Assembly (NCBI GenBank): GCA_014360465.1
Contig: JACIXQ010000001.1
Span: 35,677 to 99,676 of the forward strand
Origin: a bacterium
GTDB lineage: Bacteria > Armatimonadota > JACIXR01
DNA length: 64,000 bases
Direction: 5' to 3'
This document shows, piece by piece, positions 3,845-22,188 of the stretch. Positions within the stretch are counted from its first letter, which is position 1, and the number at the start of each line of letters is the position of its first letter. The position numbers were made by a program, and so were the translations under genes. The notes below the pieces were generated by a model. That model was not told where the DNA came from and did not search any database. It saw only the letters and a program-made list of their open reading frames with translations.

Positions 3845-4705
3845 TTATAGAAGTCCCATTGAATAGGCCATTGCCTTCAATCTCTCTATTCTTTCTTCAA
3901 TGGGTGGGTGGGTAGAGAAAAGGCGAGCAAAGGATTGACCAGGTCTAAGAGGATTAACGATGAAGAGATGCGCTGTGTGTTCTGTAGCGGGTAGGGGCAT
4001 CATTTTAGAAGCAACTTGAAGTTTCTGGAGGGCGCTTGCAAGATAAAGGGGGTTGCCCGCTATTTTGGCGCCTGTTTCATCTGCGGAATATTCCCTTGAG
4101 CGCGATATTGCCATTTGAATCATCATTGCTGCGAGCGGCGCAAGAATAGCGAGGAAAATTAAGGAAACCAATTGGAGAATATTGCCTTCCCTGTCATCGC
4201 CACCTATAGGAGCGAAGAAGAAAAGCATTCGGGCAAGGAACATAATCGCTCCTGCCAGCGTGGCAGCGATAACAGCAATTAGTGTGTCTCTGTGTTTTAT
4301 ATGGGAAATTTCGTGAGCCAAGACTCCCTTCAACTCCTGCGGATTAAGAAGTTGAAGAAGTCCGGCAGTTACCGCAACGGCTGAATGTTGGGGATTCCGT
4401 CCCGTGGCAAATGCATTCGGAGATTGATGAGGAATTATATAAATCCTTGGCATAGGAATTCCAGCTTGGGAAGATAATTCCTCAACAATGGGATAGAGGA
4501 GGCGCCCTTCTGGGTCGGAAGGGGATACTTCCTGAGCCCCATACATTGCAAGCACCAATTTATCGGAGTAGTAGTAAGCGAAGAAGTTCATCATACCTGC
4601 TAAGACCAAGGCAATGAGCATCCCATCCCTACCCCAAAAGCTTCCTATCCCTATAAAGAGTAGGGTAAGGAAAAGCATAAGCAAGAATGTTTTGAAAGTA
4701 TTCAT
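3845..4705 (-). CDS. htpX: Zinc metalloprotease HtpX (M48 family)
   Basis: HEISHIKHRD HExxH motif and four TM segments. The likely start is the MNTFKTF Met at 4705, preceded by a GGAGGTG RBS; the ORF-track extension to 4756 has no RBS. Confidence 0.85.
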   Translation of the reverse strand: MNTFKTFLLMLFLTLLFIGIGSFWGRDGMLIALVLAGMMNFFAYYYSDKLVLAMYGAQEVSPSDPEGRLLYPIVEELSSQAGIPMPRIYIIPHQSPNAFATGRNPQHSAVAVTAGLLQLLNPQELKGVLAHEISHIKHRDTLIAVIAATLAGAIMFLARMLFFFAPIGGDDREGNILQLVSLIFLAILAPLAAMMIQMAISRSREYSADETGAKIAGNPLYLASALQKLQVASKMMPLPATEHTAHLFIVNPLRPGQSFARLFSTHPPIEERIERLKAMAYSMGLL

Positions 4706-4875
4706 TATATTAGCACCTCCACTATTATTTATACATACTACCATATCCATAGTCAAACTTTGCTGGCCAAGTAGATGGAATCGGTTTTACAGTTCAAGAG
4801 TTTCAAAAAATATTGGAATTATCCGGAGCTCAAGCTATAAGAAAGCATCAGTGTTTTGATGGAATTTTACAACAG

Positions 4876-4904
4876 TTGGACATTTTTATCTTGATAATTA
4901 TAAT
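4876..4904 (+). promoter_or_regulatory. Putative sigma70-type promoter for lysA (TTGGAC, 17 nt, TATAAT)
   Basis: TTGGAC at 4876-4881, a 17-nt spacer, and TATAAT at 4899-4904, about 35 nt upstream of the lysA TTG start. Confidence 0.35.
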
Positions 4905-4939
4905 AATTTTGAAGTAATTTCCTAAAGAGGTGAGAATTT

Positions 4940-6274
4940 TTGCTTTTAGGAACTCAGCGAGTCAACGAGTTCGGTCATCTGGAGATAGGTGGTTGCGATA
5001 CCACCAAACTGGTCGAAGAATTCGGTACCCCCTTATATGTTCTCGACGAGGAATACATAAGAGAGAATTGCCGACGATATGTGGACGCTTTGAGGAACTA
5101 CTATAAAGGGGAAAGTAGAGTAGTCTATGCTGGCAAAGCTTTCCTCACCCTTGGAATGTGCAGACTTGTTGAACAGGAGGGGCTTTGGCTTGATGTATCC
5201 TCGGGTGGCGAGCTTTACACCGCCTTAAAAGCCGATTTCCCTCCCGAAAGAATTTTGATGCACGGTAATAATAAATCCCCTGAGGAATTGAAACTTGCCA
5301 TAGAAAATGAAGTGGGAAGGATTGTGGTTGATAATTTGCATGAGCTTGAGCTTTTGAATACCATTGCCCAGGAAAGGGGTGTAAGAGCGAATATTCTCCT
5401 GAGAGTGACCCCTGGAATAGACCCACACACTCATAGGTTTATCGCTACTGGACAGGTTGATACTAAATTCGGCTTGAATTTAAAGAACGGATCTGCGATG
5501 GAGGGTATTCGCAAAGCTCTCTCTATGAATGGCGTGAATCTCTTGGGCTTACATTGCCATATAGGTTCGCAATTATTGAGGATAAGTCCCATACTTAAAG
5601 CAGCGGAAATTATGGTTGAGTTCTTGAAAGAAGTGAAGGACCAGACAGGTGTGGAGTTGAGGGAACTTGACCTTGGCGGAGGACTCGGCATAAGATATCT
5701 ATCAACCCATAATCCCCCATCTATTGAGGAGTTCGTCCAAAGGCTATGCGCTGTTATGGAGAAGAATTTGAAAAGGAGTGGATTATCGTATCCCGTCCTA
5801 TTATTGGAACCTGGCAGGTCAATAGTTGGAGAAGCCGGCACCACCCTATATAAGGTAGGAGCTATAAAGGAGGTCACATTCAGCAAAAATGGGAAATTAT
5901 TTAAGAGGATATACGCAATGGTGGATGGTGGATTGTCCGACAATCCTCGCCCTCAACTATATAATGCCAAGTATGAGGCAATTGTAGCCAACAAGGCTTC
6001 CCAAAAGGGTGAAGTGCATTACACGATAGCAGGGAAACATTGTGAGACGGATGTCCTTATCTGGGATGTGTTGCTTCCTCCCCTCGAACCGGGCGATATA
6101 CTCGCTGTGTTGTCAACTGGAGCTTATAATTATTCTATGGCCAGCAATTACAACAGGTTTCCCCGTCCCGCCGCGGTTCTGGTCAGAAATGGTAAGGCGG
6201 AATTACTTGTCAAAAGAGAGACTTACGAGGACCTCTTGCGGTTTGATGTTATACCATCCCATCTCCAAAAGTAA
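4940..6274 (+). CDS. lysA: Diaminopimelate decarboxylase
   Basis: PLP fold-III decarboxylase motifs (YAGKAF, GGGLGI, the C-terminal EPGR and GAY boxes). TTG start with an AGAGGTGAG RBS. Confidence 0.9.
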   Translation: MLLGTQRVNEFGHLEIGGCDTTKLVEEFGTPLYVLDEEYIRENCRRYVDALRNYYKGESRVVYAGKAFLTLGMCRLVEQEGLWLDVSSGGELYTALKADFPPERILMHGNNKSPEELKLAIENEVGRIVVDNLHELELLNTIAQERGVRANILLRVTPGIDPHTHRFIATGQVDTKFGLNLKNGSAMEGIRKALSMNGVNLLGLHCHIGSQLLRISPILKAAEIMVEFLKEVKDQTGVELRELDLGGGLGIRYLSTHNPPSIEEFVQRLCAVMEKNLKRSGLSYPVLLLEPGRSIVGEAGTTLYKVGAIKEVTFSKNGKLFKRIYAMVDGGLSDNPRPQLYNAKYEAIVANKASQKGEVHYTIAGKHCETDVLIWDVLLPPLEPGDILAVLSTGAYNYSMASNYNRFPRPAAVLVRNGKAELLVKRETYEDLLRFDVIPSHLQK

Positions 6275-8824
6275 ATGAATATAATACTGACTCACAAATC
6301 GCCTGATGGAGATGCAGTAGCTTCCCTTCTTGGCGCTTATCTCGTTTTTCCCCATTCTCTTCCCATTATGCCAGAAGGGGCACCTTACCCTAAGGAAATT
6401 TATTCCCAGTTCGGCGATGCTTTACCTCTATATTCGGAAAAGGAAATCCCCTGGAAAAAAGTCAAAAGTGCGATTCTTGTGGATTGTTCATCCCTTGGGA
6501 GGGTGGGTAAGATTGGCGAGGAAGTAAGAAGACGAGGCTTGCCCTTGATTATCATAGACCATCACTTGGAAACCTCTGGAGAGTTAAACATCAAAAATTG
6601 TTTTGTGGAACCTTTCGGCTCTGCCACTACCATCCTTGTAGGAATGATGAAGGAGAAGGGAATAATTCCTACACCTTTCCAGGCAACATTGCTGGCTCTG
6701 GGTATATATTCCGACACCGGTTCGTTAACTTATCCATCTACTTCGGAGGAAGATTTAAAGGCTGTTGCTTTCCTTCTTTCTTGTGGAGCGAACATCCCCC
6801 AAATTGTTCCTTTGCTTCATCCCTTACTTTCTGAAGAGGAGAAGAAACTCCTGGAGGAATTCAGCGGTGGTCTTGAGGTCAAAGATATTAAGGGGGTAAG
6901 AGTTGGTATAGGTGGTGTTAAGAGGGATAAGATGGAGTTCAATCTTGCCCCTATAGCCATCAAGTTGTTGGAAAGAGAGAATATAGAGGTTCTATTTTTA
7001 ATGTTAGAGGTAGATGGAAAAACATATTTGCTTGGAAGAAGCAAGGGCGAGATATATGATGTCAGCAAAGTCCTGAGTAGATTAGGTGGGGGTGGGCATA
7101 AGAACGCGGGTGCGGGAGTTGTGCCCTGCTCTTTGAATGAAGCTAAGGAAAGGTTGACATTTCTTTTGCCACAGGGAATTCAATGGGAGATTGAAGCACA
7201 AGATATAATGACTACTCCAGTTAAAGTAGTTCACACCAATACCCTGGTTAAAGATGCTCTGGAGATTATGCGTTCCTTCGGCTTTGGAGGATTGCCTGTT
7301 GTAGATAGAGGGAAAGTGGTGGGGGTTATCACCCGCAAGGAGGCAGAGAAATTAGCTAAATATGGAATGGGTGATAAGGAGTTGGGAGCCTTTGCTTACC
7401 GAGACCCTATTTTTGTTTCTCCCAAGACGAGTTTATCACAGGTTATCAGGCATATGAACGAAGGTGGAATAGGAAGGATATTGGTTATGGAGAGGGGGAA
7501 ATTGGTAGGGATAATAACTCGCCAGGATGTCATTGGTGCACTATATGGTCAAAGGATAAAGGAAAAAAGAGGGGAACAGATAATAGAAGAAATCGATTAT
7601 GGATTAAGGGAGAAACTTCTTAAAATCGGCGAGTTAGCTGCTTCACTCGGTATGAGGACATATCTCGTTGGAGGTGTCGTGAGGGATATAATTTTGGGTA
7701 AAGGTGTCAACGACCTTGATATCCTTGTTGTAGGAAAAGCGATAGAACTCGCGGAGAAAATAAGCCAGGAGATGAAGGGTGAGTTGATATCTCATCATCG
7801 CTTCGGAACAGCTACGGTCAGACTTCCTGATGGGCTTGAGATAGACTTCGCCAGCGCAAGGCGAGAATTCTACCCTAGGGCAGCGGTCTTGCCAGCTGTA
7901 GAGCCAGGTTCACTCAAAGAGGACCTTTTCAGAAGGGACTTCACGATAAATGCGCTTGCGCTCTCCTTACATCCCCGCGAATTCGGTTTCCTCGTTGATT
8001 ATTTTGGGGGAATGGAGGATTTGAGAAAAAAAAGTATAAAGGTACTTCATAGCCTCAGCTTTTGGGAAGACCCTACACGCCTATTGCGAGCTATAAGGTT
8101 GGAGGCGAAGCTCGGTTTTAAGATGGATGAATGGACGGAAAAATTGGCAAGGGATGCAGTAATAGGAGGTGCCCTAGCTCCCTTATCTGGAGAACGCTTT
8201 CGGGAGGAACTCAAATTGACGATAGAGGAGAATCCAGCCTATTGCTTAGTGAGAATGGAGGATATAGGGGTTCTAAAGGCAATACATCAAAAGGCTAAGC
8301 TGGACAAGCAAATGCTAAGACGATTACTTAAGCAGAAAATCGGCTCTAATAGTGTGGAAGAATGGATATTATATCTCTATCCTGTTCTCGGCTCCTTGAA
8401 CGAGGAAGAGATAAAGAGGGTTACATATCGGCTCAGGATGACCTCGCAACAAAGAGAGAAATTCCTTGTCCTTGTAGGAGTTGACGAGATTATAGCGAAT
8501 CTCTCTTCTCCCCGTTTGAAAAGGAGTCAGATTTACAGGTTGTTGAGGGATTTGCCAGCGGAAATCATATTCTGGATGAGGGCAAAAGGAAATAGAGTAG
8601 TTAAAAGAAGGGTTTCTCTTTTCTGGGAGAAGTTGCGATTTGTAAAGGTTTCTTTGACAGGTGAGGACTTGATGAATTTAGGGATTCCTGAGGGTCCAAT
8701 GGTTGGTCAAATCCTTTCAAAACTACTTGAGGCAAGGTTAGATGGGAAGGTAAGAAACGATGATGAGGAAAAATCTTTGGCTTTAAAGCTGAAGGAGGTA
8801 AAATATGGCGGAGAGGCTTATTGA
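6275..8824 (+). CDS. Multidomain fusion: DHH-DHHA1 phosphoesterase (NrnA-like), tandem CBS domains, and a CCA-adding / poly(A) polymerase-family tRNA nucleotidyltransferase
   Basis: N-terminal DHH motifs (SPDGDAV, IIDHH, GGGGHKNAGAG). Two CBS repeats (TTPVKVV...LPVVD, VSPKTSL...ILVME). Pol-beta nucleotidyltransferase head (LVGGVVRDIILGKGVNDLDILV, RREFYP, RRDFTINALA). The start codon abuts the lysA stop. Confidence 0.75.
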   Translation: MNIILTHKSPDGDAVASLLGAYLVFPHSLPIMPEGAPYPKEIYSQFGDALPLYSEKEIPWKKVKSAILVDCSSLGRVGKIGEEVRRRGLPLIIIDHHLETSGELNIKNCFVEPFGSATTILVGMMKEKGIIPTPFQATLLALGIYSDTGSLTYPSTSEEDLKAVAFLLSCGANIPQIVPLLHPLLSEEEKKLLEEFSGGLEVKDIKGVRVGIGGVKRDKMEFNLAPIAIKLLERENIEVLFLMLEVDGKTYLLGRSKGEIYDVSKVLSRLGGGGHKNAGAGVVPCSLNEAKERLTFLLPQGIQWEIEAQDIMTTPVKVVHTNTLVKDALEIMRSFGFGGLPVVDRGKVVGVITRKEAEKLAKYGMGDKELGAFAYRDPIFVSPKTSLSQVIRHMNEGGIGRILVMERGKLVGIITRQDVIGALYGQRIKEKRGEQIIEEIDYGLREKLLKIGELAASLGMRTYLVGGVVRDIILGKGVNDLDILVVGKAIELAEKISQEMKGELISHHRFGTATVRLPDGLEIDFASARREFYPRAAVLPAVEPGSLKEDLFRRDFTINALALSLHPREFGFLVDYFGGMEDLRKKSIKVLHSLSFWEDPTRLLRAIRLEAKLGFKMDEWTEKLARDAVIGGALAPLSGERFREELKLTIEENPAYCLVRMEDIGVLKAIHQKAKLDKQMLRRLLKQKIGSNSVEEWILYLYPVLGSLNEEEIKRVTYRLRMTSQQREKFLVLVGVDEIIANLSSPRLKRSQIYRLLRDLPAEIIFWMRAKGNRVVKRRVSLFWEKLRFVKVSLTGEDLMNLGIPEGPMVGQILSKLLEARLDGKVRNDDEEKSLALKLKEVKYGGEAY

Positions 8825-9407
8825 CCTCGTGCTAATGGCTCCCTTCTTTATATTTGGAATAGTGCTCCACGAATACGCACACGGCTGGGTGGCTTGGAAG
8901 CTGGGGGACCCAACGGCAAAATACTCCGGTAGATTAACCCTTGATCCTATGGCTCACTTCGACCCGTTTGGAGCTTTGATGTTCCTTTTTTCTTCCCTCG
9001 TTGGTGTGGGCTTCGGCTGGGCAAAACCCGTGCCGGTTAACTTCTATAATCTGCGTAATCCACGCCGCGATACTATACTCGTATCTCTCGCAGGACCGGG
9101 AGCTAATATCCTTTTAGCCATCGCTTGTCTTCTATGCCATCATCTTTTCCGTTCATTTTCACCACCACTTTCCAGCTGGTTCGCTCTGGGGTTTCTGCTC
9201 AATCTGGTCCTTGCCATATTCAATCTTCTTCCTATTCCCCCTCTCGACGGTTCAAAAGTATTGATGGTCCTTTTGCCTCCACGCTATGCTTATACCTATG
9301 CTCGGATGGAACCCTTTGGTTTTATCATACTTCTCGCCTTTTTAGCTACAGGTTTATTCAGCTTAATAGTTAATGCGGTTATCAATCTATTGAGGTTTCT
9401 ACTTTAG
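8805..9407 (+). CDS. M50-family (site-2-protease-like) membrane zinc metalloprotease
   Basis: HEYAHG HExxH motif within a TM segment; 200-aa multi-TM protein. It overlaps the preceding gene by 20 nt. Confidence 0.6.
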   Translation: MAERLIDLVLMAPFFIFGIVLHEYAHGWVAWKLGDPTAKYSGRLTLDPMAHFDPFGALMFLFSSLVGVGFGWAKPVPVNFYNLRNPRRDTILVSLAGPGANILLAIACLLCHHLFRSFSPPLSSWFALGFLLNLVLAIFNLLPIPPLDGSKVLMVLLPPRYAYTYARMEPFGFIILLAFLATGLFSLIVNAVINLLRFLL

Positions 9408-11537: not shown

Positions 11538-12263
11538 ATGCGAAGGAGTAATGGAAAAGGCGGTTTCACCTTGATAGAATTGCTCGTAGTGATTGCTATT
11601 ATTGCAATCCTTGCAGCAATTCTATTCCCTGTCTTTAGCCGAGCACGAGAGATGGCGCGGAAGTCACAATGTATGAGCAATATGAGGAACTTAGCTACCG
11701 CTGCCTTGATGTATGCCCAGGATTGGGACGAGCACTTCTTCCTCACAGCTGATGCTTTTTGTAATTCCCCTACTCCTGGTTGTTGGGCTGTGCAATATCT
11801 CAATCGCCACACTGGGATTTACCCCTATATCAAGAACGAGGCGATAATGATTTGCCCGAGCAAAGGAATGCCTCCTCTTGAGGTTCAAGACTGGAGCTAT
11901 GGTTGGAATAAATGCTTGGGTCCTGATTTCTGGTTCCCTCACGGAGTTTCCCTTGCCTCTATAGCCCAACCATCCAAAGTGCTGATGTTCGGTGAATGTC
12001 ATGTAGTATGGCATCCCATCTCCATGAGGAATGGTTGTTGTGGTTTTGCTAATCATCTTCCCGAGGAACCCGACCATCAGAGACATCTTGTTGCTTTCCG
12101 CCATAACGATACCGCGAACATCGCCTTTGTTGATGGGCATGTTAAGGCGTTCAAGAGGGAGCAGATTCCCGATTGGGATGGACAGATGGATGCGAGTGGC
12201 GTGCGCAACACTAATGTCTATATAGACCCCCTCTGCCGGAACGCCGAGGATTACGGGATGTAA
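11538..12263 (+). CDS. DUF1559 / prepilin-type N-terminal cleavage-methylation domain protein (H-X9-DG family)
   Basis: [34 protein letters not shown] prepilin leader and pilin-like helix. C-terminal [19 protein letters not shown]9-DG motif. AAGGAGGTG RBS. Confidence 0.8.
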
Positions 12264-12355: not shown

Positions 12356-15232
12356 ATGGAAATAAAAGAGAAATTTGCTCACCCTCCAAGGGAATCTTTC
12401 CCCTATATCCTCCTTAACTTGGAGGAAAACCCTATTCTTGATAACCTCTTTTCTCGTCTGTCTAATCTCAAAAATTACTGCGCTGGTTTTATTATCAAAA
12501 CGTCTTCAAAACATAAGGGGATGGTTAGAAAGATAGCCGAATTCTTTAAAAAAGAGAATATTCCCTTTTATCTTGTTCTCCCATCCTTCACTCCTTTCAC
12601 ATCCTCACTACAAGCGATAAGGCTTACTGCGAAGGAGGGGGGAATAGTCGAGATTCCATTCCAAGGAAAGTTGCAATGGGTGGGCGCGGTTTCTAACCTC
12701 GGGACTGCCCAACCGAATATCATAGAGCTTAAGCAGTTCGTTGAGGGAAATGTGCTGAAATGGTCTGTCCCAGCTGGCGGTTGGGAAATCGTTATTATAT
12801 CCTCTTCCGAACAGGAAACAGTTGAAAACCCTTCAGAGGTGATTTCCTTCTGGATTGAGGAGCTATCTGAGTTCATTCCCCCTCTTGCGGGTTTTTACAT
12901 TCCCAGCCTGAATTTCCACCCTTTCCCTTGGAGAGAGGACCTTCCTGAGGAATTTCAGCGAAGGAGAGGTTATCCTTTTTTGCCTTCTTTTCCTGCCCTC
13001 GTTCTTAACTTAGATGGGAAATCGGGTAAGTTTCGTTATGATTTCCGTAGAACCGTTTATGAAATATGGGAAGAGAGTATCAAAGGGATAGTCAATAATT
13101 TACAAAGAAAGGGATTAACGCTTCTTTCTGTTCCCGATACAAAAGAGCATTGCTGGAGTGAGCTATTCCTTTTAGCTTCTCAACTTCCAGCTATTGCTAT
13201 CCGTCCATCTGATAATCGCTTTATTGACGAGTTCGTCGCAGCTCTCCTTTCCTCATTTCTTCCCATCGTCGATTTTTCACGCAAGTGGTCAGCTTCAATT
13301 GAAGAGTTGAAAACTTGGACGGATTTGTTATCTGTTTATGGTGTTGCTGGTAGTATACTTTATCTTCCAGCTTCTCGCCCAGATACTCAACTATATGAAC
13401 AACTTTTGCTTCCCATAATATCCCAATACCAAGCTCGCCTTCGTTTTCTCTTTCAGAGTTTTCCTCCTCAAAGCAAGGTGGCTATGCTTTTGCCACGACT
13501 TTCATTCTGGGTTAATCAACGATTAGGAGAAGATGATGAATATTTCAGGTCCGTCGAGAGAGACATCTTTTACCTTTCGGAATTGCTACACAAAATACAC
13601 TATCAGTTCTCTTTTGTGGACGAGGACGAACTGCCCAATCTAACTGGCATACATACGCTTGTCTTGCCCTCCATCGCGGTCCTCAAAAGGAGCACCATTC
13701 AGTGGCTTGAGAAGTTCAACGAGGGAGGAGGGAATATCATAGCTCTCGGAATGTTCCCTATTTGTTCCGAGGAAGGAGTGGATTTGAACCTTCAGAACGC
13801 TATTCGTGCGATATTTAAAGTGAACATAGAAGATATAAATAAGCTTTATCTTCTCTCAGCGAAGGAGGGGATTGGAAGCGCGGTTGCTTATGCAGTAGGA
13901 AGGATTCATCCTTTATCGGGAGGTAGGATTTATGCTTACCAGCCAGCTGTCAACCCCGATAGAGGGGAGGCGCTTCGCCAGACAAGGCAACTATTTAGAC
14001 AATGCGCTCCACCCGATTTGGATTCCTTAATTGAGGATGTTCTATGCCATCCGCGGAGAGGGAATCTTTTCCTCATATATAACGACGGTGAGAAAGAGGT
14101 CAAACTCAATGCGTTGCTCCCGGTACAGGGAATACCGTTCAAATTGGAAGCTAAATCGGGCAAAATTGTCAAAATACCAGTTTATTCTTTGATGGAGGAT
14201 GGACGAACCATCATTAGGGAAAAGCTCCCTTCCCGATTCCTCTCCATCATTCAGTTTGATAGAGGGGAAGAAGCCCATATTGACCAAGCTAATTTCGTTG
14301 TGGAGGAATTAAGGGTAGGGGAAGGGCAAATAGAGATAATTGGCTGCCAGGTGGGTCCTGAACCTCCATTTGCGGTCATAGAGCATAAAGGGGAAAGGAA
14401 AGAGGTAGATGGCAAGGCTTTTCCCATTCTTCCTTCAATTCCCTTGCCGGTAGAATGGGAAATAGAGCCAATTAGTCCAAATGTTTTACCACTAAAGAAT
14501 TGGCGCTTCCAGAGAAAGACCTCTTGGTTTTCCCAATTTTTCTTTCCGAGAAGACCCCAACCAGGCTGGCCTAGCCTCTCTCCTGATTACCAACCTAATG
14601 GTTTAACTTGGTACCAAACAACTTTCTCTTTGCGGGAAATGGTTAACGAGCTTTTCCTTTGGCTTGAATATCCCCCAGAGGTTGTATATATAAACGGGAA
14701 GAAATTAAAAGGAGGAAAAGAGTTTGCGATTAACGATTATGTGATGGAGGGGGAGAATTACATATATTTGCTTTTCAATCATAACAAATATCCGAGTATG
14801 CCCTACATTATGCTTAAGGGGAATTTTTCCCTTTATTTTCTTGAGGGTGAGTGGAGGATTGGCAAATTAAAGAGGATTCTTCAGATTGGCTCTTGGACTG
14901 AACAGGGTTTTCCATTCTATGTTGGCACCATCAAATATAGGACATCCTTCTTTCTTCCCAGCCTTTACCTTGGTAAAAAAGCTGTGTTGTCGTTAGGGCA
15001 GGTTAAAGATATGGTTGAGGTATTTGTGAACAACAACAGGGTGGATTTTCTTTTCTCCTCTCCCTGGGAGGTAGAGATAGGAGGATTCCTCAGCGAAGGG
15101 GAGAACGCGCTGGATTTGCTGATTACGAATTGCCCGCCCGAAACGATGGGTGAGGGACCGCACCAGTCGGGTTTGTTAGCTCCCTCTCAGGTGCTTATAT
15201 TCAATAGGGTTTGCCTTCGTCTACCCCTTTAA
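12356..15232 (+). CDS. Large hypothetical glycoside-hydrolase-like protein with two C-terminal galactose-binding-like (GH2-N-like) domains
   Basis: 958-aa ORF with no signal peptide. Two tandem C-terminal segments follow the GH2 sugar-binding jelly-roll pattern (W.F...TWYQTTF...VYINGKK...GENYIYLL, and a second copy ending GENALDLLI). The N-terminal region is unassignable, and the start at 12356 has no clear RBS. Confidence 0.35.
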   Translation: MEIKEKFAHPPRESFPYILLNLEENPILDNLFSRLSNLKNYCAGFIIKTSSKHKGMVRKIAEFFKKENIPFYLVLPSFTPFTSSLQAIRLTAKEGGIVEIPFQGKLQWVGAVSNLGTAQPNIIELKQFVEGNVLKWSVPAGGWEIVIISSSEQETVENPSEVISFWIEELSEFIPPLAGFYIPSLNFHPFPWREDLPEEFQRRRGYPFLPSFPALVLNLDGKSGKFRYDFRRTVYEIWEESIKGIVNNLQRKGLTLLSVPDTKEHCWSELFLLASQLPAIAIRPSDNRFIDEFVAALLSSFLPIVDFSRKWSASIEELKTWTDLLSVYGVAGSILYLPASRPDTQLYEQLLLPIISQYQARLRFLFQSFPPQSKVAMLLPRLSFWVNQRLGEDDEYFRSVERDIFYLSELLHKIHYQFSFVDEDELPNLTGIHTLVLPSIAVLKRSTIQWLEKFNEGGGNIIALGMFPICSEEGVDLNLQNAIRAIFKVNIEDINKLYLLSAKEGIGSAVAYAVGRIHPLSGGRIYAYQPAVNPDRGEALRQTRQLFRQCAPPDLDSLIEDVLCHPRRGNLFLIYNDGEKEVKLNALLPVQGIPFKLEAKSGKIVKIPVYSLMEDGRTIIREKLPSRFLSIIQFDRGEEAHIDQANFVVEELRVGEGQIEIIGCQVGPEPPFAVIEHKGERKEVDGKAFPILPSIPLPVEWEIEPISPNVLPLKNWRFQRKTSWFSQFFFPRRPQPGWPSLSPDYQPNGLTWYQTTFSLREMVNELFLWLEYPPEVVYINGKKLKGGKEFAINDYVMEGENYIYLLFNHNKYPSMPYIMLKGNFSLYFLEGEWRIGKLKRILQIGSWTEQGFPFYVGTIKYRTSFFLPSLYLGKKAVLSLGQVKDMVEVFVNNNRVDFLFSSPWEVEIGGFLSEGENALDLLITNCPPETMGEGPHQSGLLAPSQVLIFNRVCLRLPL

Positions 15233-16211
15233 GGGTTTGAAGCTCTTTTTCTATGGCGGGTAGGTCGATTGGATAGCGGGCGAATCTTTGCCTGATATAC
15301 AGCATAGATAGATAGTTTTCTAAAGGCATTCCCTTGAAGGGCACATTGCTGGTGCAGAGGATATGTCCTCCCCCAGGTGAAGCGTCTTTAATAGACCTAA
15401 GTGTATCAATCATAACTTTTCTTGGCGATTCCATATGGAGAATTGCACAGTTGACATTGCCACAGAGGCAGACCTTATTGCCGTATTTCCTTTTGACCTC
15501 TTTTAAATCTACCTTTGCCATAGGGTCAAGGGAATGGAGGGCGTGTGGTCTTGCTGAGAGAAGTTGGTCTATTATCGGCATAATGTTGCCATCGGTATGG
15601 ATTATCACATATAGTCCGAGTTCTCTTTGGGCTCCGACTATTTCCTGTAGGTAAGGGGTGACAAATTCGGAGAACATCTTGGGTGATAAGAACGGACCGG
15701 CATTGAAGCAGTAATCCGTGCAATGAGTTACGCAATCCAGCCCTGCATCTCGTATTTTTTTGCTTCTCTCTATAGCCCAATCTCTCATTTTCCTCGCCTG
15801 GTTATGAGCTTCTTCTCTCTGGTCGTGGAGAAAATAAACGAACGCTTCCATATTCTCCCCGGAAGGAATCCCATATGTCCCACTCGCTTCACAAGCTATA
15901 AGGTATTCATTGCCGAATTCCTTTTTGAGGAATTTTATGGTGAAAATTTCATCCTCAATGTTTGGAAGCCAGTTGATCCTGATGATTGAATAATCAAGGG
16001 TTTGGGCTACTTGCCCCATCAAAACTGCGTTTTTGCTCAACAATCTCTCTCTTTCTCTCTGAGTTACGCATTTCAAATCCTCAGCCGTCAAAAAGTGGAT
16101 TCCCTTTCCGAAAAGTTCCTCCGTAAGTTGGAACTCAAGTTCAAAAGTGGGAACTATATCCTCAGGTTCACGAAGTTCCAATGCCGCTATTGCTCTCTCA
16201 CTTGGTTTCAT
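15201..16211 (-). CDS. Uroporphyrinogen decarboxylase (URO-D) family protein, MtaA/CmuA-like methyltransferase-type
   Basis: 336-aa TIM-barrel-like protein with URO-D-family features (HTDGNIMPIIDQL, HALHSLDP, CGNVN). Confidence 0.55.
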   Translation of the reverse strand: MKPSERAIAALELREPEDIVPTFELEFQLTEELFGKGIHFLTAEDLKCVTQRERERLLSKNAVLMGQVAQTLDYSIIRINWLPNIEDEIFTIKFLKKEFGNEYLIACEASGTYGIPSGENMEAFVYFLHDQREEAHNQARKMRDWAIERSKKIRDAGLDCVTHCTDYCFNAGPFLSPKMFSEFVTPYLQEIVGAQRELGLYVIIHTDGNIMPIIDQLLSARPHALHSLDPMAKVDLKEVKRKYGNKVCLCGNVNCAILHMESPRKVMIDTLRSIKDASPGGGHILCTSNVPFKGMPLENYLSMLYIRQRFARYPIDLPAIEKELQTLKGVDEGKPY

Positions 16212-16227
16212 CTCGCACCTCCAGTTT

Positions 16228-16866
16228 TCAATATCCTGTTTCCATCTCGCTGATTATTTCTTCGGAAAGATGGCAAGTATCATTCAGTGTCACTATTTGC
16301 CATCCCCATTCTTCGTAGAAATCAAAGATATTTATATTAGCGTTAGCCTGTTTAATTCGTCTGAAAGGTTTTATTGTCCCAAGGATATGACAGACAAAAG
16401 CCCTTATGGGTCCACCGTGTGCGACGAGAAGAACTTCTTCTCCCTTGTGTCTGGTGGGTATATTTTCTATAAATTCAACCACACGACTTTGCATTTCCAA
16501 TATTCCTTCTCCTTCTGGAGGGTAAGCCTTTCCTTCATACCATAGTTCCAAAGCGTTTCCCCATTTCTCTCTTATTTCCTCCAAGGTTAGTCCTTCCCAT
16601 TTCCCGAAATCGGCTTCCATTAAAGATGTTGTTTCTACCACTTCTAAATTATGCGTTAAAGAGATGATTTCGGCGGTATTTTTTGCTCTTATAAGGGGGC
16701 TAGAATATACAGCATTGAGCGGGATGTTGGCAAGTCTTTTAGCCAGGAGTTTGGCTTGTGTGATGCCCTTTTGATTTAAAGGGACATCCGTCCTGCCTTG
16801 CATCTTTCCTCCATCGTTCCATTCTGTCATTCCGTGCCTAACCAGATATATCCTCGTTTTGCACAT
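16228..16866 (-). CDS. Histidine phosphatase superfamily (phosphoglycerate-mutase-like) phosphatase
   Basis: N-terminal IYLVRHGMTEWN RHG catalytic motif and a downstream LLVAHGGPIRA His box. Its start overlaps the 3' end of the Clp1-like gene by 29 nt. Confidence 0.8.
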   Translation of the reverse strand: MCKTRIYLVRHGMTEWNDGGKMQGRTDVPLNQKGITQAKLLAKRLANIPLNAVYSSPLIRAKNTAEIISLTHNLEVVETTSLMEADFGKWEGLTLEEIREKWGNALELWYEGKAYPPEGEGILEMQSRVVEFIENIPTRHKGEEVLLVAHGGPIRAFVCHILGTIKPFRRIKQANANINIFDFYEEWGWQIVTLNDTCHLSEEIISEMETGY

Positions 16867-17920
16867 ATTTGTCCTCCTTTTTCTGCGGTAGGTTTATCTT
16901 CATAGAGCCAAAGACAATTGTTGAAACCTTGTTAGCATCTCGGAGTGGGGTATAAATAGTGAGGTTCTTCTCAGCGAAACCGATGCTCTTTATTATTCCG
17001 ACCTCAATGTATTCTCCGTTCTCACTTGCAAGCCCTACATATCTATCGGTCAGCTCATCCACTGTAATTATGTGGACCTTTTTGCCCAATTCCCTTTCAA
17101 GAGAAAGGGGGGATAGACCCCCATATTTTTCTTCTCCTACCAGCCATATTCCCCATCTATCGCCTTCTCCCCATAATAGTTTTCTTCCCCATTTACTCTC
17201 AAGGTATTTCAGGAGTGAAGGATGAAGGGGATTGGTTGCAAAGATAGGTGAATTGCGAAAGGCAATCCGGTCCAGGGTGAAGGTGAGAAAGGAAGCATTT
17301 GCGAAATGGGAAAGAACTTTTCTCTCCCTGTTTTCCTTCCTTTCCTCAAAGGAGCGAGCGGAAGCCAGGGGTGAGGGGGGAAGACGATATATATTCAACC
17401 AGCTCGTCTTTTCCCAGCCCTTCAAAATATGTTCCACTTCTATCCCCCTCTGAAGAGCGACAAGATGATTTGGGCGGATTGCCTCTATTTTGAAGCTTTT
17501 AAGCTTTCTCGCTGGCATACCGCTCACGAGCCCTGTTGTATCAACGAGGACAAGTTCTGCTCCAAGTTCCAACGCCTTTCGGACCATCTTTTCTGTGCCA
17601 ACGACCATATCAAGAAAATGACCCTGAGGTGATATATCGCCGACAAAGTAAAGAGCCGATAGAGGGATATCTGATAGTGACATCATTTCTGGATGGGCAA
17701 ATCCTAAACCGATTGTCCCGGGTGGACCGATGTCTGACTGACCTATATCTGCGTCCACGACAGCAACCTTTTGGTAAAAGTTGAGGGCATAAAAGGCTAC
17801 GGCAGCGCAGAAGGTGCTCTTGCCTACATCAACAGCTCCAAGAACCAGTGCCACGCCGCCTTCCCTTGCTATTTTCTCTCCCACTTCCTGCCATTGAGGA
17901 TGGAGCTGGAATTTCCTCAT
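16838..17920 (-). CDS. Clp1/Grc3-family P-loop polynucleotide 5'-hydroxyl kinase-like protein
   Basis: Walker A GAVDVGKST followed by VAVVDADIGQSDIGPPGTIGL, which tracks the eukaryotic/archaeal Clp1 segment VELDVGQGSVSIPGT. The colinear downstream blocks are VDTTGLVSG...LVALQRGIEVEHIL and LPPSPLASARSFEERKENRERKV. A 4-nt ATGA overlap links it to the upstream M20 gene. Confidence 0.7.
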   Translation of the reverse strand: MRKFQLHPQWQEVGEKIAREGGVALVLGAVDVGKSTFCAAVAFYALNFYQKVAVVDADIGQSDIGPPGTIGLGFAHPEMMSLSDIPLSALYFVGDISPQGHFLDMVVGTEKMVRKALELGAELVLVDTTGLVSGMPARKLKSFKIEAIRPNHLVALQRGIEVEHILKGWEKTSWLNIYRLPPSPLASARSFEERKENRERKVLSHFANASFLTFTLDRIAFRNSPIFATNPLHPSLLKYLESKWGRKLLWGEGDRWGIWLVGEEKYGGLSPLSLERELGKKVHIITVDELTDRYVGLASENGEYIEVGIIKSIGFAEKNLTIYTPLRDANKVSTIVFGSMKINLPQKKEDKYVQNEDISG

Positions 17921-18969
17921 CTGCCGTAATTATCTATAATATAGATAAGAAGTTCTGTGAGAAAAAGCAAATCATCGGCATTAACCCATTCCCTTTCCGA
18001 ATGAGCTACTGAGAGATCCCCTGCACCTAAAACAACGCTATTTATCCCCTTTTTAATAAGGTTGGCTGCGTCTGTCCAGCTCCTCATACCTGCATAGATG
18101 ATGTCCTTTCCCTTGCTTTTCATAAATTCTTCAATGTAGTTACATACGCTGGGAGGTTCGGGAAGCTCATAAGGGTGAGCGATGTCCACAAGTTTGAAAT
18201 TTACATTTTTTTCTTTAAGGAAATTTTCAACTTCAATTTTTGCTTGGTCTATATTTACATTTGGCAAGATATGTATATCAACTTGAATCTTGCAGGTAGA
18301 TGGAACAACGGTTATGAATTCACCACCTTGGATGAAGGAGAGGTTCACTACAGGGGGAGGAAAGAGGGGATGCCGAGCTTGTAAAAAGGAAAGGTTTGAT
18401 AGTTCCTCATAAAGGGAAAGCGCCTTGAGGATGGCATTATCACCCTTTTCAGGCGTGGCGCTATGGGTTGGTTTTCCTTTAACATCTATTTCGTATTCAA
18501 GGGAACCCGCCTCGGCGATGCAAAGGGATAAGTTGGTTGGTTCCAATACGATGGCTTCTTCTACCTCTAATTCCAGTTTTTCCGAACCTTTTCCCTCTAA
18601 TTCTTCATCCACAGTCAAGGCTACTTTACAAGGACCTTTTGAATGTCTTAGAGCCACGAGAAGCGAGGCTATTTGCCCTTTGGCATCAACTACTCCTCTC
18701 CCTATGAATTCGCCATTTTCTTCAACCAGTTCGTAGGGGTTGGGATGACCGAAGGGAGGGATTGTATCAAGGTGCGTGCAAAGTAGAAGAGAGCTTAGCC
18801 CCCTTTCACCGATAAGATTGAAGCTATTAGGTTTGACTTCCTGTGTTCTTACATCAAAACCAATTTCTTGAAGCATAGCTTTGACCCTCTCGGCTAAGAT
18901 TCTTTCTTCTCCCGAGGGGCTTGGTATGCTTATTAGTTGCTTCAGAATTTCTCGTATCTCGTCCTTCAT
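17917..18969 (-). CDS. M20-family metallopeptidase / deacylase (ArgE/DapE-like)
   Basis: LLCTHLDTIP and GRGVVDAKG motifs and the overall M20 two-domain layout. Confidence 0.75.
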   Translation of the reverse strand: MKDEIREILKQLISIPSPSGEERILAERVKAMLQEIGFDVRTQEVKPNSFNLIGERGLSSLLLCTHLDTIPPFGHPNPYELVEENGEFIGRGVVDAKGQIASLLVALRHSKGPCKVALTVDEELEGKGSEKLELEVEEAIVLEPTNLSLCIAEAGSLEYEIDVKGKPTHSATPEKGDNAILKALSLYEELSNLSFLQARHPLFPPPVVNLSFIQGGEFITVVPSTCKIQVDIHILPNVNIDQAKIEVENFLKEKNVNFKLVDIAHPYELPEPPSVCNYIEEFMKSKGKDIIYAGMRSWTDAANLIKKGINSVVLGAGDLSVAHSEREWVNADDLLFLTELLIYIIDNYGR

Positions 18970-19688
18970 TTTTCACCTCTGCATATAATTGATACCCCGA
19001 AAGGGAAAGAAAATCCATTTTTAATCATCTTTGCTTCTTGAAGAAGAAGATAATAAAGGAAATCATTAAGAAAGGCGGGCAATATAATTAGAGAGCTTTT
19101 GGGGGTGCGATTCGCTCTTTTGAGGACCTTCTGGAGAAGACGAAATAGGACAATGGGGAAAAAGGAAAAGACTATGGCATAAGAGATGAACTTTATTGAG
19201 AAACCTACGCCTTCCATCTTGCCCGCTATCTCTCCCTTAGAATAACGACGGAAATGACAGAGAGCTTCATCGTGCTCGCTCCAGAGAAATTTGTAAGCTG
19301 GGACAGTCACAAGAAGAGTTCCGCCTTTTTTAAGAACCCTGTACATCTCCTTTAAGCCTTTGACATCGTCTGGGAGATGTTCCAGGAGGTCGAGGGCGAG
19401 GACTAAGTCAAATACATCGTCTTTAAATGGCAGATTTTCAGCTTTTGCCTGTATTAATTGGGCGTCGCTTTTTCTCCTTTTCGCTAATTTCAATGCTTCT
19501 AAGGATGCATCCAGACCGATAACATTGGCATTAAAAAGGGAAAGGTTGGCGCCAGTGCCACAACCGACATCCAGGATTCTCTCTGGTTTTAAATCCCCAA
19601 GAACGGAGGATATTATTGCCCTTCTTCCTTTGAACCACCAGTAGAAATCTTCAAGGAGGAACATCTTTTCAAATTCCTCTTCTTTCAT
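18966..19688 (-). CDS. Class I SAM-dependent methyltransferase
   Basis: ILDVGCGTGANL motif I. The likely start is MKEEEFEKMF at 19688, giving an ATGA overlap with the GT2 stop; the ORF-track N-terminal extension to 19778 overlaps that gene. Confidence 0.75.
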   Translation of the reverse strand: MKEEEFEKMFLLEDFYWWFKGRRAIISSVLGDLKPERILDVGCGTGANLSLFNANVIGLDASLEALKLAKRRKSDAQLIQAKAENLPFKDDVFDLVLALDLLEHLPDDVKGLKEMYRVLKKGGTLLVTVPAYKFLWSEHDEALCHFRRYSKGEIAGKMEGVGFSIKFISYAIVFSFFPIVLFRLLQKVLKRANRTPKSSLIILPAFLNDFLYYLLLQEAKMIKNGFSFPFGVSIICRGEK

Positions 19689-20389
19689 CTTATCCTCCAC
19701 TTTATTCTGAAGATATCTATGAGGGAAGATACACCATTCTTTAATATTTTCACTTTTGAGCCTGGAGCGTGTCGCCAACGAACTGGCACTTCCTTTATCT
19801 TATAGCCGAGTTTCCGCGCTATATACAAAATTTCAAAATCGAAAGAAAACCCTTTAAGCGTTTGTCTCCTAAAAAGTTCCTTGGCTACTTCTCCTTTAAA
19901 TAATTTGAAGCCGCATTGGGTATCATAAATACCGGGAAGCAGAATGGTCCTGAGGATGAAATTAAAGACCCTTCCCATAAATTCGCGGGGAAATGGTTGA
20001 TGAATCTCCAGCTTTGCACCTGGGTAGGCACGAGAGGCGATGGCGATATCGTAGCCTTCTTTAATATGCTGAAAGAGCTTCGGAAGTTCCTCTATAGGGG
20101 TTGAGAGGTCGGCATCGGAGAAGAGGATATATTTGCCTTTCGCTTCCCCAACTCCTGTTTTCACAGCATAACCCTTGCCTTGATTTGTTGGAAGACGAAC
20201 CAATCTAAGCTCTTTGTGATTTTTCAGCTTTTCCTCTACGAGGGCGGGGGTGGCATCAGTTGAGCCATCATCAACAACTATAATTTCAAATGTATATCCC
20301 CATTTCCTCATAAAGGCAATGATATTTTCTAAGCTTTTCCCCAACCTACCCGCTTCATTGAAGGCGGGAATGACGATGGAAAAATCCAT
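19685..20389 (-). CDS. GT2-family polyprenol-phosphate glycosyltransferase (DPM1 / GtrB / ArnC-like)
   Basis: FSIVIPAFNE, VVDDGSTD and FSDADLS (DxD) motifs; 234 aa. Confidence 0.85.
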   Translation of the reverse strand: MDFSIVIPAFNEAGRLGKSLENIIAFMRKWGYTFEIIVVDDGSTDATPALVEEKLKNHKELRLVRLPTNQGKGYAVKTGVGEAKGKYILFSDADLSTPIEELPKLFQHIKEGYDIAIASRAYPGAKLEIHQPFPREFMGRVFNFILRTILLPGIYDTQCGFKLFKGEVAKELFRRQTLKGFSFDFEILYIARKLGYKIKEVPVRWRHAPGSKVKILKNGVSSLIDIFRIKWRIR

Positions 20390-21819
20390 TAGAAGTTGTA
20401 TTCAACCCTGAGCTCCCCAATAATGTTATTTTCCTCCTTACCACCACTTGTAACTTTCTGGTGTCTTATACCCAATGTTAGTGACTTGTCGGTGCCCATA
20501 TCGTAGGGGAGCAGAAGGCTTAGTTCAGTAATTTTAATCGGTGAAGGTGAGCTTTTCAGTTGAGTTGTTCTTGCGATTTGAAAGATAAAGGGAGGATTTT
20601 TATGAAAATCTACCCTTGTAAAGATCCCCCTTGAATCCCGTCCCAGGGGGAAACCCATAGGATAGCCCTTGTAGAGATAATCATCATTTGGGTCCTTGTG
20701 TGTATAAGTTTCATTATCGGCATAGAAGTATTCAAGGTGGAAAGTAAAGTCCTTGCATTTTTTTCTCCCACCCAGAAGTAGAGCTGTCTTGCGGGGGACA
20801 TGATGGGGATAAGTGGTTATATCATCAACGAACCAGTCTCCATATATCGCTCCATTGGGGAAATTTTTCGCTACTTCCAAACCCATTATAACATTGACAT
20901 TATAATCGTTTTCCCAGAAATATTGCACCGCGTATAAAGGCAGTATTGGGACGAAAGCGAAAAGGGAAGGAAATTGGTCGGAAAAATGGATATCGTATAG
21001 GGCGAAATCCCAATCCTTTAGCGTTTTTTCTATTCTTCTCGCAATATAATATCTCCTTATCCCATTGGAGCTATAAGTTGTATGAAATTGCTTGAAGTTG
21101 AAAAAACCCCAGGAACCGATTTTGAAATTTTTGCTGAAGAGCAGGTAATCATAGGGCGGGGGATTATCGCTTAACCAGACGGAGCTGACATAGCCTGGAC
21201 CAAGTCGAACATATCCCCTTCCGATTTCCCAATCGGCATCCCAAAACGGGATTTTAGCTATCGCGCTATCCAAGAGGGAAAAATCTGAGGGTTTTTTAGC
21301 CAACCAGCGTCTTTCATTGCTTGCGGAGAAATATGTGAAGCCGTGGCTTAGGGGGATGAACGACGAAACGCGATACAATAACTTGCTATCGCTCTCATCG
21401 TTGTCGCTATCATAATGTGCTATGCCAGCAAATCTCCCTCCTATAAAGATGTTTTGGTAGTAGGAAAGTTCCAATTTTTCTTTTACATCCTTTATATTCA
21501 CATTCAAAGCTTCCAACTCTTGAGAGAACTCGTCAATTAACTTACCCAGAACGAAGAAGTCTTCATCTGAAAAGTCCCAGGGTTCATTCTCAGCTTTATT
21601 GATCAAATCCTTAAGGAGGATTGCGATTTCCCCTCGGGAGAAGACGCCATCGGAGAAGAGAAGTCTACTCGGGATATTGAGCAAACCTTTGGCAGCCATA
21701 CTTCCTAAGGAGTTTCTTATCCAGGAGCGAGGTGAAACTTGGTCCGATTGAAGAGCGAAGGAGATAAGGCTTCCGAAAACAAGTGAAAGAATCAAAATGC
21801 GTTTCAAGTTTGTGGGCAT
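20389..21819 (-). CDS. SLH-domain outer-membrane beta-barrel protein (OmpM/Slp-like)
   Basis: Signal peptide. An N-terminal SLH-like segment (SWIRNSLGSMAAKGLL...FSDGVFSRGEIAILL) and a long aromatic-rich region ending in the OMP signature ...ELRVEYNF. Confidence 0.55.
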   Translation of the reverse strand: MPTNLKRILILSLVFGSLISFALQSDQVSPRSWIRNSLGSMAAKGLLNIPSRLLFSDGVFSRGEIAILLKDLINKAENEPWDFSDEDFFVLGKLIDEFSQELEALNVNIKDVKEKLELSYYQNIFIGGRFAGIAHYDSDNDESDSKLLYRVSSFIPLSHGFTYFSASNERRWLAKKPSDFSLLDSAIAKIPFWDADWEIGRGYVRLGPGYVSSVWLSDNPPPYDYLLFSKNFKIGSWGFFNFKQFHTTYSSNGIRRYYIARRIEKTLKDWDFALYDIHFSDQFPSLFAFVPILPLYAVQYFWENDYNVNVIMGLEVAKNFPNGAIYGDWFVDDITTYPHHVPRKTALLLGGRKKCKDFTFHLEYFYADNETYTHKDPNDDYLYKGYPMGFPLGRDSRGIFTRVDFHKNPPFIFQIARTTQLKSSPSPIKITELSLLLPYDMGTDKSLTLGIRHQKVTSGGKEENNIIGELRVEYNF

Positions 21820-21822
21820 TTT

Positions 21823-22188
21823 TTATGCGCTCCTTTCTTCTATTTTCACTATTTCGTTTTTCTCATTAAGGTAAGCGATTTTATATCTCCAGTTTTTGAC
21901 TTCTTCATCGTTTACCCATTTATAGGCTAAAACTAAAATGGTATCGCCAGGGTAAGCGAGGCGAGCTGCCGGTCCATTCAAAACAATTTCACCCTTTTTC
22001 CCCTTTATGACATAGGTAACAAACCTTTCACCATTGTTTAGATTCAAAACTTGGACTTTTTGCCCTGGCAAAATATCCATTTGCTTAAGGATTTCTTCAT
22101 CAATGGTTATGCTTCCCTCATAGTGAAGTAGGGTATCAGTTACTTTGGCGTTTTGGATTTTGGCGTATAGCATCTCTCTAAATGTCAC
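21823..22188 (-). CDS. panD: Aspartate 1-decarboxylase
   Basis: MLYAKIQNAKVTDTLLHYEGSITID (pyruvoyl-forming GS site); 121 aa. Confidence 0.9.
   Translation of the reverse strand: MTFREMLYAKIQNAKVTDTLLHYEGSITIDEEILKQMDILPGQKVQVLNLNNGERFVTYVIKGKKGEIVLNGPAARLAYPGDTILVLAYKWVNDEEVKNWRYKIAYLNEKNEIVKIEERSA

Follow-up and report, generated by a model that had tools for sequence, protein, structure and literature searches.

Enzymes of the Clp1 family phosphorylate the 5'-OH of a ribose that bears a 3'-phosphodiester. In bacteria they are rare, being found in 0.9% of complete genomes (Saito et al. 2019, PMC6777427), and the one bacterial enzyme with a reported activity, Ts-Clp1 from Thermus scotoductus, phosphorylates RNA 5'-OH ends in vitro (PMC6777427); gene neighbourhoods were not analysed in that study. 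Here we consider a predicted Clp1-family 5'-OH kinase gene (16838-17920, minus strand) and the predicted CobC-like phosphatase gene that overlaps it (16228-16866, minus strand). Both lie in a stretch of 64,000 nucleotides from an Armatimonadota genome (contig JACIXQ010000001.1, positions 35,677 to 99,676), which as a whole is called the window and whose own coordinates are used throughout. Bacterial Clp1 and CobC are each known; what appears to be new is a conserved operon pair of Clp1 and CobC-like genes, together with the recurrence of corrinoid genes beside bacterial Clp1. An earlier note, drawn from the sequence of the window, had read the two genes as a module for the healing of RNA ends; the comparisons reported here favour, tentatively, a role in cobamide metabolism.

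The window kinase resembles Ts-Clp1 and Pyrococcus horikoshii Clp1 in Pfam family, P-loop, Walker B/GQ motif, TxG motif and lid arginines (PMC6777427). Like both of these it is short and lacks the N-terminal domain of the eukaryotic enzymes, and its fold matches Clp1/Grc3/NOL9. It differs from eukaryotic Clp1 at the clasp, where Leu131 stands in place of Trp, and from Ts-Clp1 in its setting: descriptions of the known bacterial enzymes give neither a gene neighbourhood nor a partner, whereas the window kinase gene is fixed beside that of a CobC-like phosphatase. The phosphatase in turn has the fold (branch-1 histidine phosphatase) and the catalytic residues of CobC, as known from Salmonella CobC and T. 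thermophilus TTHA0368, and the CobC model is its best match in NCBIfam. It scores under the curated cutoff, however, and is encoded outside a cob operon with no riboswitch, and its partner is of the Clp1 type instead of CobU, CobT or CobS.

A 5'-kinase and a phosphatase encoded together also recall Pnkp/Hen1 and T4 Pnkp, the activities of the window proteins being predicted. However, the window kinase is of the Clp1 and not the T4 Pnk type, the phosphatase is of the histidine and not the calcineurin or HAD type, neither a ligase domain or gene nor a methyltransferase of the Hen1 type is found in the window operon or among the annotated neighbours of the paired loci, and those neighbours are cobamide genes, not repair genes. 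In mycobacterial RnhC (MSMEG_4305/Rv2228c) a nucleic-acid enzyme is likewise linked to a CobC-type histidine phosphatase, there by fusion with RNase H and here as an operon pair with a kinase. The NCBIfam model of that fusion is the first or second match of the Clp1-linked phosphatases (132-161 bits); by experiment, the domains of RnhC were found to be functionally independent, and its CobC part to serve B12 synthesis (PMC7466739). In the CblS/CblT salvage route of Listeria and Geobacillus, salvaged alpha-ribazole is converted by a kinase to alpha-ribazole-5'-phosphate, and once CobS has acted the phosphate is taken off by CobC (PMC6461909). The order of a kinase followed by CobC is the same logic that may be proposed for the window pair; the Clp1-like kinase was not recognised as a CblS homologue, any resemblance being one of function only, and no CblT-like transporter was seen.

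The predicted kinase and its phosphatase neighbour

The kinase gene encodes a protein of 360 aa, which the earlier note had placed in the Clp1 family from colinear motif blocks, and this placement is borne out by family model, fold and motifs alike. Against Pfam CLP1_P the protein gives E=3e-36 (125 bits, cutoff 26.6 bits) over residues 28-207, and its only sequence relatives in the PDB are human CLP1 and NOL9. The AlphaFold model, built with 20 homologues in the alignment, has a mean predicted local distance difference test score (pLDDT) of 91.1 and a predicted template modelling score (pTM) of 0.88. When it was compared with the PDB by Foldseek, the top 23 matches were all Clp1/Grc3/NOL9 structures (E 3.5e-18 to 4e-11), followed by GTPases of the signal recognition particle type at E~4e-4 only. 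The protein is a genuine member of the Clp1 family, in a short bacterial form without the Clp1 N-terminal beta-sandwich. A plasmid search with the kinase gave no match, nor did any NCBIfam model match it at E<=0.01, the presence of a CblS model in that library being unconfirmed.

The catalytic motifs of the kinase comprise a Walker A GAVDVGKST (residues 28-36), VDADIGQS (55-62), DTTGL (127-131) and RKENR with lid-like arginines (194, 198). In an alignment of 20 diverse homologues, G28, G33, K34, D56, D58, G60, Q61, T128, T129, G130, R194 and R198 are invariant, and among 159 homologues, paired or unpaired with a phosphatase gene, the conservation of Walker A, Walker B/GQ and the lid arginines is 98% or more. 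Over Walker A and Walker B/GQ the kinase aligns with human CLP1 residue for residue; R194 and R198 are assigned as lid arginines by conservation and position only. In eukaryotic Clp1 the clasp motif is TxGW, in which an aromatic residue (Trp, in the C. elegans structure) stacks on the 5'-terminal base. The corresponding position 131, after T128-T129-G130, is Leu in the window kinase and in 83% of the phosphatase-paired homologues; in the unpaired homologues Tyr occurs in 46%, and W, F and M are found as well. Paired and unpaired kinases were also compared for residues that might mark a substrate specificity. Leu131 was the only one near the active site, and because it is confounded with phylogeny it was set aside as not decisive.

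The phosphatase gene encodes 212 aa, and its identification as a histidine phosphatase with an RHG motif, likewise proposed before, agrees with a full-length match to His_Phos_1 (E=1.3e-63); it belongs to branch 1 of these enzymes. The catalytic core is complete: R10-H11-G12, R60 (in SSPLIRA), E84 and H150 (in AHGG). Phosphatases of this branch cleave monoesters via a phosphohistidine, and CobC among them removes the ribose 5'-phosphate from adenosylcobamide-5'-phosphate or alpha-ribazole-5'-phosphate. The top NCBIfam model of the window phosphatase is TIGR03162, the alpha-ribazole phosphatase (CobC) equivalog model, at 151.0 bits against a curated cutoff of 162.9 bits; the model of the phosphoserine phosphatase PspA ties with it at 151 bits, against a cutoff of 350 bits. 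In seven Clp1-linked orthologues from separate groups TIGR03162 ranks first or second, with 125-160 bits. Three homologues that are encoded beside cob genes score 158.8, 160.6 and 175.4 bits with the same model, the lowest of them 8 bits above the window phosphatase. The CobC of locus L166, although it lies within a cob operon, is itself just under the cutoff (160.6), and that of L162, beside CobU, passes it (175). The window phosphatase and the higher-scoring Clp1-linked ones are thus only a few bits below CobC proteins encoded next to cob genes.

The gene contexts of six of the closest phosphatase relatives outside the window clade (37-46% identity) were looked up, and three of the six are beside cob genes. 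At L166 the order is aminotransferase (cobD)-CobU-CobT-CobS-phosphatase, a textbook nucleotide-loop operon; at L165 CobO precedes the phosphatase, and at L162 (Desulforamulus) CobU does. The window phosphatase is 35-42% identical to these three. The remaining contexts are uninformative: one relative lies between NadD and Gmk (L167), one follows a DUF3842 gene and one has no clear context. DUF3842 genes occur next to or near CobC-like phosphatase genes at two Firmicutes-type loci (L161:4556-5630 and L162:3178-3591, the one with CobU), and DUF3842 may possibly be an uncharacterised cobamide-linked family.

At the junction of the two genes (16838-16879, minus strand) the coding regions overlap by 29 nt (16838-16866), as had been read in the sequence before. 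The phosphatase ATG is at 16866, and a strong Shine-Dalgarno sequence, AAGGAGG (16879-16873), lies 6 nt upstream of it, within the 3' end of the kinase gene. The part of the kinase that holds this ribosome-binding site is a C-terminal tail which is poorly conserved and modelled with low confidence. Overlap and internal Shine-Dalgarno sequence together suggest, from the arrangement of the letters, that translation of the kinase and the phosphatase is coupled.

Conservation of the gene pair

Clp1 relatives were sought in one-genome-per-species contigs and in Joint Genome Institute (JGI) metagenomes, which gave 306 and 371 stretches, respectively. Even with this many stretches found, the rarity of Clp1 in bacteria stated by the earlier note agrees with the published frequency. 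The best 80 of the 306 genome stretches and the best 80 of the 371 metagenome stretches form the set of 160 loci (L001-L160). The phosphatase partner was scored by tblastn in the 1.79 Mb around the 160 Clp1 homologues, with the window phosphatase as query.

A phosphatase match was obtained in 48 of the 160 loci, and in 47 of these 48 it begins directly downstream of Clp1 on the same strand; counted by matches instead of loci, 48 of 49 are placed in this way. The remaining match is at L082 (5317-8656), a close relative of the window, where three inserted genes separate it from Clp1 by 3.3 kb; the insert encodes a beta-propeller protein and two RDD-type membrane proteins. Apart from the adjacent copies and the one at L082, no phosphatase copy was found elsewhere in the 1.79 Mb of flanks. 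The count of adjacent pairs and this lack of stray copies exclude a chance adjacency. In the 43 paired loci in which the gap was taken, window counted, it is mostly between -4 and +40 nt.

The distribution of the pair on the neighbour-joining tree of Clp1 is uneven. Paired loci are confined to one half of the tree, where a few unpaired loci stand among them, and form at least five groups: the window clade, L096/L097, L020/L060/L098, L011, L092, L116/L151 and a large clade, here clade c. None of the 53 Poribacteria loci is paired, compared with 44% of the loci outside Poribacteria. The Poribacteria loci (L017-L080) carry a block of their own that extends through the phylum, with SppA, Clp1, an MsbA-like ABC transporter, a pentapeptide-repeat protein and RpoD, and in about 25 of them a class I methyltransferase of 239 aa follows Clp1.

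Between the window and the other paired groups, Clp1 identity has fallen to 31-38% and phosphatase identity to 34-43%. Over the same distance the surroundings have changed altogether: the M20 hydrolase, methyltransferase, GT2, Wzi-like, URO-D-like and GH106 neighbours of the window are confined to the window clade (5 of the 160 loci). The conservation check that had been proposed for the pair therefore came out in its favour across deeply diverged lineages. Kinase and phosphatase genes have remained neighbours after all synteny around them was lost, a pattern that usually marks functionally coupled genes. The pairwise identities of kinase and phosphatase correlate with r=0.93 overall and 0.33 among pairs below 50% identity. 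In a crude neighbour-joining tree of the phosphatases, the Clp1-linked ones are interleaved with unlinked ones; the correlation of identities is consistent with co-inheritance and is not decisive. A concatenated query revealed no natural fusion of Clp1 and phosphatase, no match covering more than 63% of it, and an apparent fusion of HAD and Clp1 (P0241) proved to be a spurious overlapping Pfam call.

Taken together, the Clp1-family kinase and CobC-type phosphatase genes form a co-transcribed pair whose translation is probably coupled. The earlier note had held the combination to be undescribed, and in the literature searched we likewise found no account of the kinase-phosphatase pair or of corrinoid genes beside bacterial Clp1, an earlier mention in surveys of RNA repair or of CblS being possible.

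Cobamide genes and the possible role of the pair

The genes beside Clp1 were annotated in the conserved gene clusters of the paired loci and, for the unpaired lineages, among the immediate co-directional neighbours of representatives; about 35 Clp1 lineages were inspected. In clade c the gene after the phosphatase is that of the ATP:corrinoid adenosyltransferase CobO (CobA_CobO_BtuR, 1.6e-60), in 31 loci. It is part of a block with a metallo-beta-lactamase (MBL) hydrolase, a tetratricopeptide repeat (TPR) protein, a small NTF2-like protein and the order Clp1-phosphatase-CobO-phosphoribosyltransferase (pyrE-like)-gyrB-gyrA. CobO adjoins Clp1 a second time at L085 (4200-7591), where no histidine phosphatase is present and the order is M20D amidohydrolase, CobO (4.9e-63), a gap of 4 nt, Clp1 and a Sir2/CobB-type gene. 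At L008 a cobU-cobT-cobS-btuF-btuC-like operon is led by a cobalamin riboswitch (7089-7278, minus strand, 90.8 bits); an unpaired Clp1 gene (7920-9023), transcribed divergently, is about 850 nt away, with one small gene between the operon and Clp1, and an RNase HII gene lies convergently downstream in the same locus (4698-9023). In the window clade the gene after the phosphatase is MtaA-like, from the family of corrinoid methyltransferases, and was likewise counted on this side. The CobC-like partner, CobO beside Clp1 on two occasions and the nearby cobUTS genes form a consistent theme, and they favour a connection of the pair with cobamides. The conserved partner gene is the first concrete lead to the role of bacterial Clp1, and it points, unexpectedly, to cobamide metabolism rather than to RNA repair.

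If the two enzymes had their canonical roles only, one as an RNA 5'-kinase and the other as the last enzyme of cobamide synthesis, there would be no reason for a durable linkage. Probably, then, either one partner has a non-canonical substrate or the linkage is without function. We prefer the first possibility and put at about 0.4 the probability that the pair acts in the assembly or salvage of the cobamide nucleotide loop and not on broken RNA. In this scheme the phosphatase would remove the ribose 5'-phosphate from adenosylcobamide-5'-phosphate or alpha-ribazole-5'-phosphate, as CobC does. The kinase, in what is the most speculative step, would phosphorylate the 5'-OH of the lower-ligand alpha-riboside, either in free alpha-ribazole or in the cobamide itself. 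The 5'-phosphorylated intermediate so made might be used by CobS and be dephosphorylated later by the CobC-type enzyme, and the kinase would then be analogous in function to the alpha-ribazole kinase CblS. Adenosylcobalamin-5'-phosphate is a 5'-phospho-nucleotide with a 3'-phosphodiester, and is in this respect a small-molecule mimic of a 5'-phosphorylated polynucleotide end. Since the CobC step on this compound is the reverse of the Clp1 reaction, a Clp1-type phosphorylation of alpha-ribazole or of a cobamide is plausible.

A bolder version of the same idea is that a clade of bacterial Clp1 kinases switched from RNA ends to the nucleotide loop of B12, replacing CblS-type salvage non-orthologously and making CobC an obligatory partner. 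This we consider doubtful; if it were true, it would be the first role of the Clp1 family in the metabolism of a cofactor or small molecule. Many cobamide users have no recognisable genes for the activation or salvage of the lower ligand. A kinase acting on the lower-ligand riboside would fill a gap of this known kind, and a polynucleotide kinase fold would have found a second use, on a cofactor resembling the 5' end of a nucleotide.

Several observations weigh against a role in cobamide metabolism. To our knowledge every Clp1 enzyme characterised biochemically, Ts-Clp1 included, is a polynucleotide kinase. Apart from the clasp position, paired and unpaired kinases do not differ in their active-site residues, so that the alignment gives no sign of a changed substrate. 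The top match of the phosphatase among sequences of solved structure is PspA of Hydrogenobacter (1e-34), followed by PhoE and then by the T. thermophilus alpha-ribazole phosphatase (2e-18) and CobC (7e-16), and the protein may be a general metabolic phosphatase. Neither a cobalamin riboswitch nor a further cob gene (cobU/T/S/D/O) is present in the window, and no riboswitch was found upstream of the 10 paired loci tested. The 31 loci with CobO share one long syntenic block and amount to roughly one evolutionary event, and among about 35 lineages it is not very unlikely that one or two cob genes should come to lie near Clp1 by chance. Finally, in other, mostly archaeal-type, lineages the Clp1 family associates with enzymes of RNA ends.

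The strongest rival explanation, which we regard as unlikely but as deserving serious weight, is that kinase and phosphatase serve unconnected functions and share no more than a transcript, the kinase acting on RNA 5'-OH ends and the phosphatase being an ordinary CobC or a PhoE/PspA-like metabolic enzyme. Their overlap, with the downstream ribosome-binding site inside the upstream gene, would then hinder their separation. The window operon, made of eight plainly unrelated genes, and the clade c block with its housekeeping genes (pyrE, gyrBA) are what would be expected under this explanation. Mycobacterial RnhC, in which the RNase HI and CobC domains are functionally dissociated (PMC7466739; bioRxiv 10.1101/2022.11.09.515703), provides a precedent. 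Furthermore, the pair is separable, as the 3.3 kb between the genes at L082 demonstrates, and the phosphatase partner is absent from most Clp1 lineages. However, the same order, orientation and near-zero gap have been kept at 31-38% Clp1 identity while all other neighbours changed, and pairs so conserved are usually linked in function. Unrelated functions would also leave unexplained why CobO lies beside Clp1 at L085, in a lineage without the phosphatase.

The healing of RNA ends by two proteins, as the earlier note had it, now seems improbable. The kinase would act on the 5'-OH and the phosphatase on the 3'-phosphate, giving ligatable ends as with Pnkp. Its only specific support is the known activity of the kinase family, which acts on polynucleotides, its bacterial member included (PMC6777427); the catalytic motifs are intact, and a kinase plus a phosphatase is the logic of Pnkp. 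Clp1 homologues also adjoin genes for end-modifying enzymes elsewhere. At the unpaired, archaeal-type L093 (283-2655) the Clp1 homologue is followed after 58 nt by the RNA 3'-phosphate cyclase RtcA, and at the archaeal-type L122 (5761-7885) and L144 by a calcineurin-like phosphoesterase after 14-17 nt. These arrangements are possible unfused counterparts of the kinase/phosphoesterase pair of Pnkp, and they indicate that Clp1-type kinases do recruit end-modifying partners. Histidine phosphatases, moreover, are promiscuous in substrate.

It is the phosphatase and its surroundings that fit RNA healing poorly. By model score the phosphatase is barely separable from CobC of cob operons, and we know of no branch-1 histidine phosphatase that opens 2',3'-cyclic phosphates. 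The annotated neighbours of the paired loci and of the unpaired representatives include no RNA ligase, RtcB, 2H phosphoesterase, nuclease or toxin, RtcA occurring only at the unpaired L093; the lack of a fusion of Clp1 and phosphatase and the adjacency of CobO also speak against healing. The analogy with Hen1/Pnkp was rejected, as the methyltransferase matches generic class I models only, with no match specific to Hen1, and is limited to the five loci of the window clade, and there is no ligase. A CobC-like phosphatase in a conserved cobalamin context had been named in the earlier note as a finding that would speak against healing, and for the most part this is what emerged, in the phosphatase scores, in three of six relatives and in the 31 loci with CobO; the window itself has no cob context. 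If the phosphatase acts on RNA after all, it would represent a new fold for the healing of RNA ends.

The other bacterial Clp1 contexts consist of uninformative housekeeping genes. At L086 (174-2744) genes for a HIT-family hydrolase, a Clp1 homologue and ApbE are spaced 2-3 nt apart, and at L169 (1268-3226) an intein (Pfam Intein_splicing) is present in a V-type ATPase subunit gene beside a Clp1 homologue of the short form.

Very improbable is a kinase/phosphatase cycle on another ribonucleoside or nucleotide, such as nicotinamide or nicotinate riboside and its mononucleotide, or on the 5' phosphorylation state of RNA, where the phosphatase would oppose the kinase as a 5'-phosphatase: CobC-type enzymes do act on ribose 5'-phosphates, one close relative of the phosphatase lies between nadD and gmk (L167) and Sir2-type NAD-consuming genes adjoin Clp1 in six Bacillota-like loci (L004, L009, L010, L027, L085, L172), but Sir2 is very common and occurs in both orientations relative to Clp1, no pathway gap demands such a cycle, and the evidence is circumstantial.

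Further genes of the window

The pair is part of an operon on the minus strand (15201-22188) that comprises, in order of transcription, panD and genes for a Wzi-like outer-membrane protein, a GT2 glycosyltransferase, a class I methyltransferase, an M20 hydrolase, the Clp1-like kinase, the phosphatase and a URO-D-like protein. The eight co-directional genes overlap or nearly abut. Their predicted functions are unrelated, and because of this heterogeneity membership of the operon says little by itself. Upstream of panD, at 22265-22238, the sequence TTGACT-16-TAAAAT resembles a promoter; a scan for promoters and terminators found nothing above chance. The idea of a mobile element or defence island was rejected in view of flat composition and housekeeping neighbours, and the only Rfam match in the window is a tRNA.

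Directly upstream of the kinase, and co-directional with it, are the genes of the M20 (ArgE/DapE-type) hydrolase and of the class I S-adenosylmethionine (SAM) methyltransferase (17917-19778, minus strand), joined by ATGA overlaps. The ATGA overlap of the kinase and M20 genes (17917-17920) and the place of the methyltransferase two genes upstream of the kinase were read in the sequence as they had been before. The methyltransferase matches Methyltransf_11 (7e-26), and its best NCBIfam match, to the DVU_1556 family, reaches 81 bits where the cutoff is 155. Both genes are outside the conserved pair.

Downstream, a gene of the URO-D superfamily (15201-16211, minus strand; Pfam URO-D 4.9e-21), similar to MtaA/CmuA of the corrinoid methyltransferase family, starts 16 nt past the phosphatase stop codon with a GGAGG of its own. 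The best NCBIfam match of its product is methylcobalamin:coenzyme M methyltransferase, at 53 bits and far under the cutoff. This gene adjoins the phosphatase only in the window clade, and it still overlaps the phosphatase gene at L082, where Clp1 has become separated; whether it belongs to the module is uncertain. No corrinoid-binding protein was identified among the annotated genes of the window.

On the plus strand (11538-12263), near GH20 and GH106-like glycosidase genes, the window encodes a protein with a prepilin-type N-terminal methylation motif and DUF1559. Such a combination is typical of Planctomycetota/Armatimonadota-like genomes, and agrees with the Armatimonadota labels that several paired loci carry.

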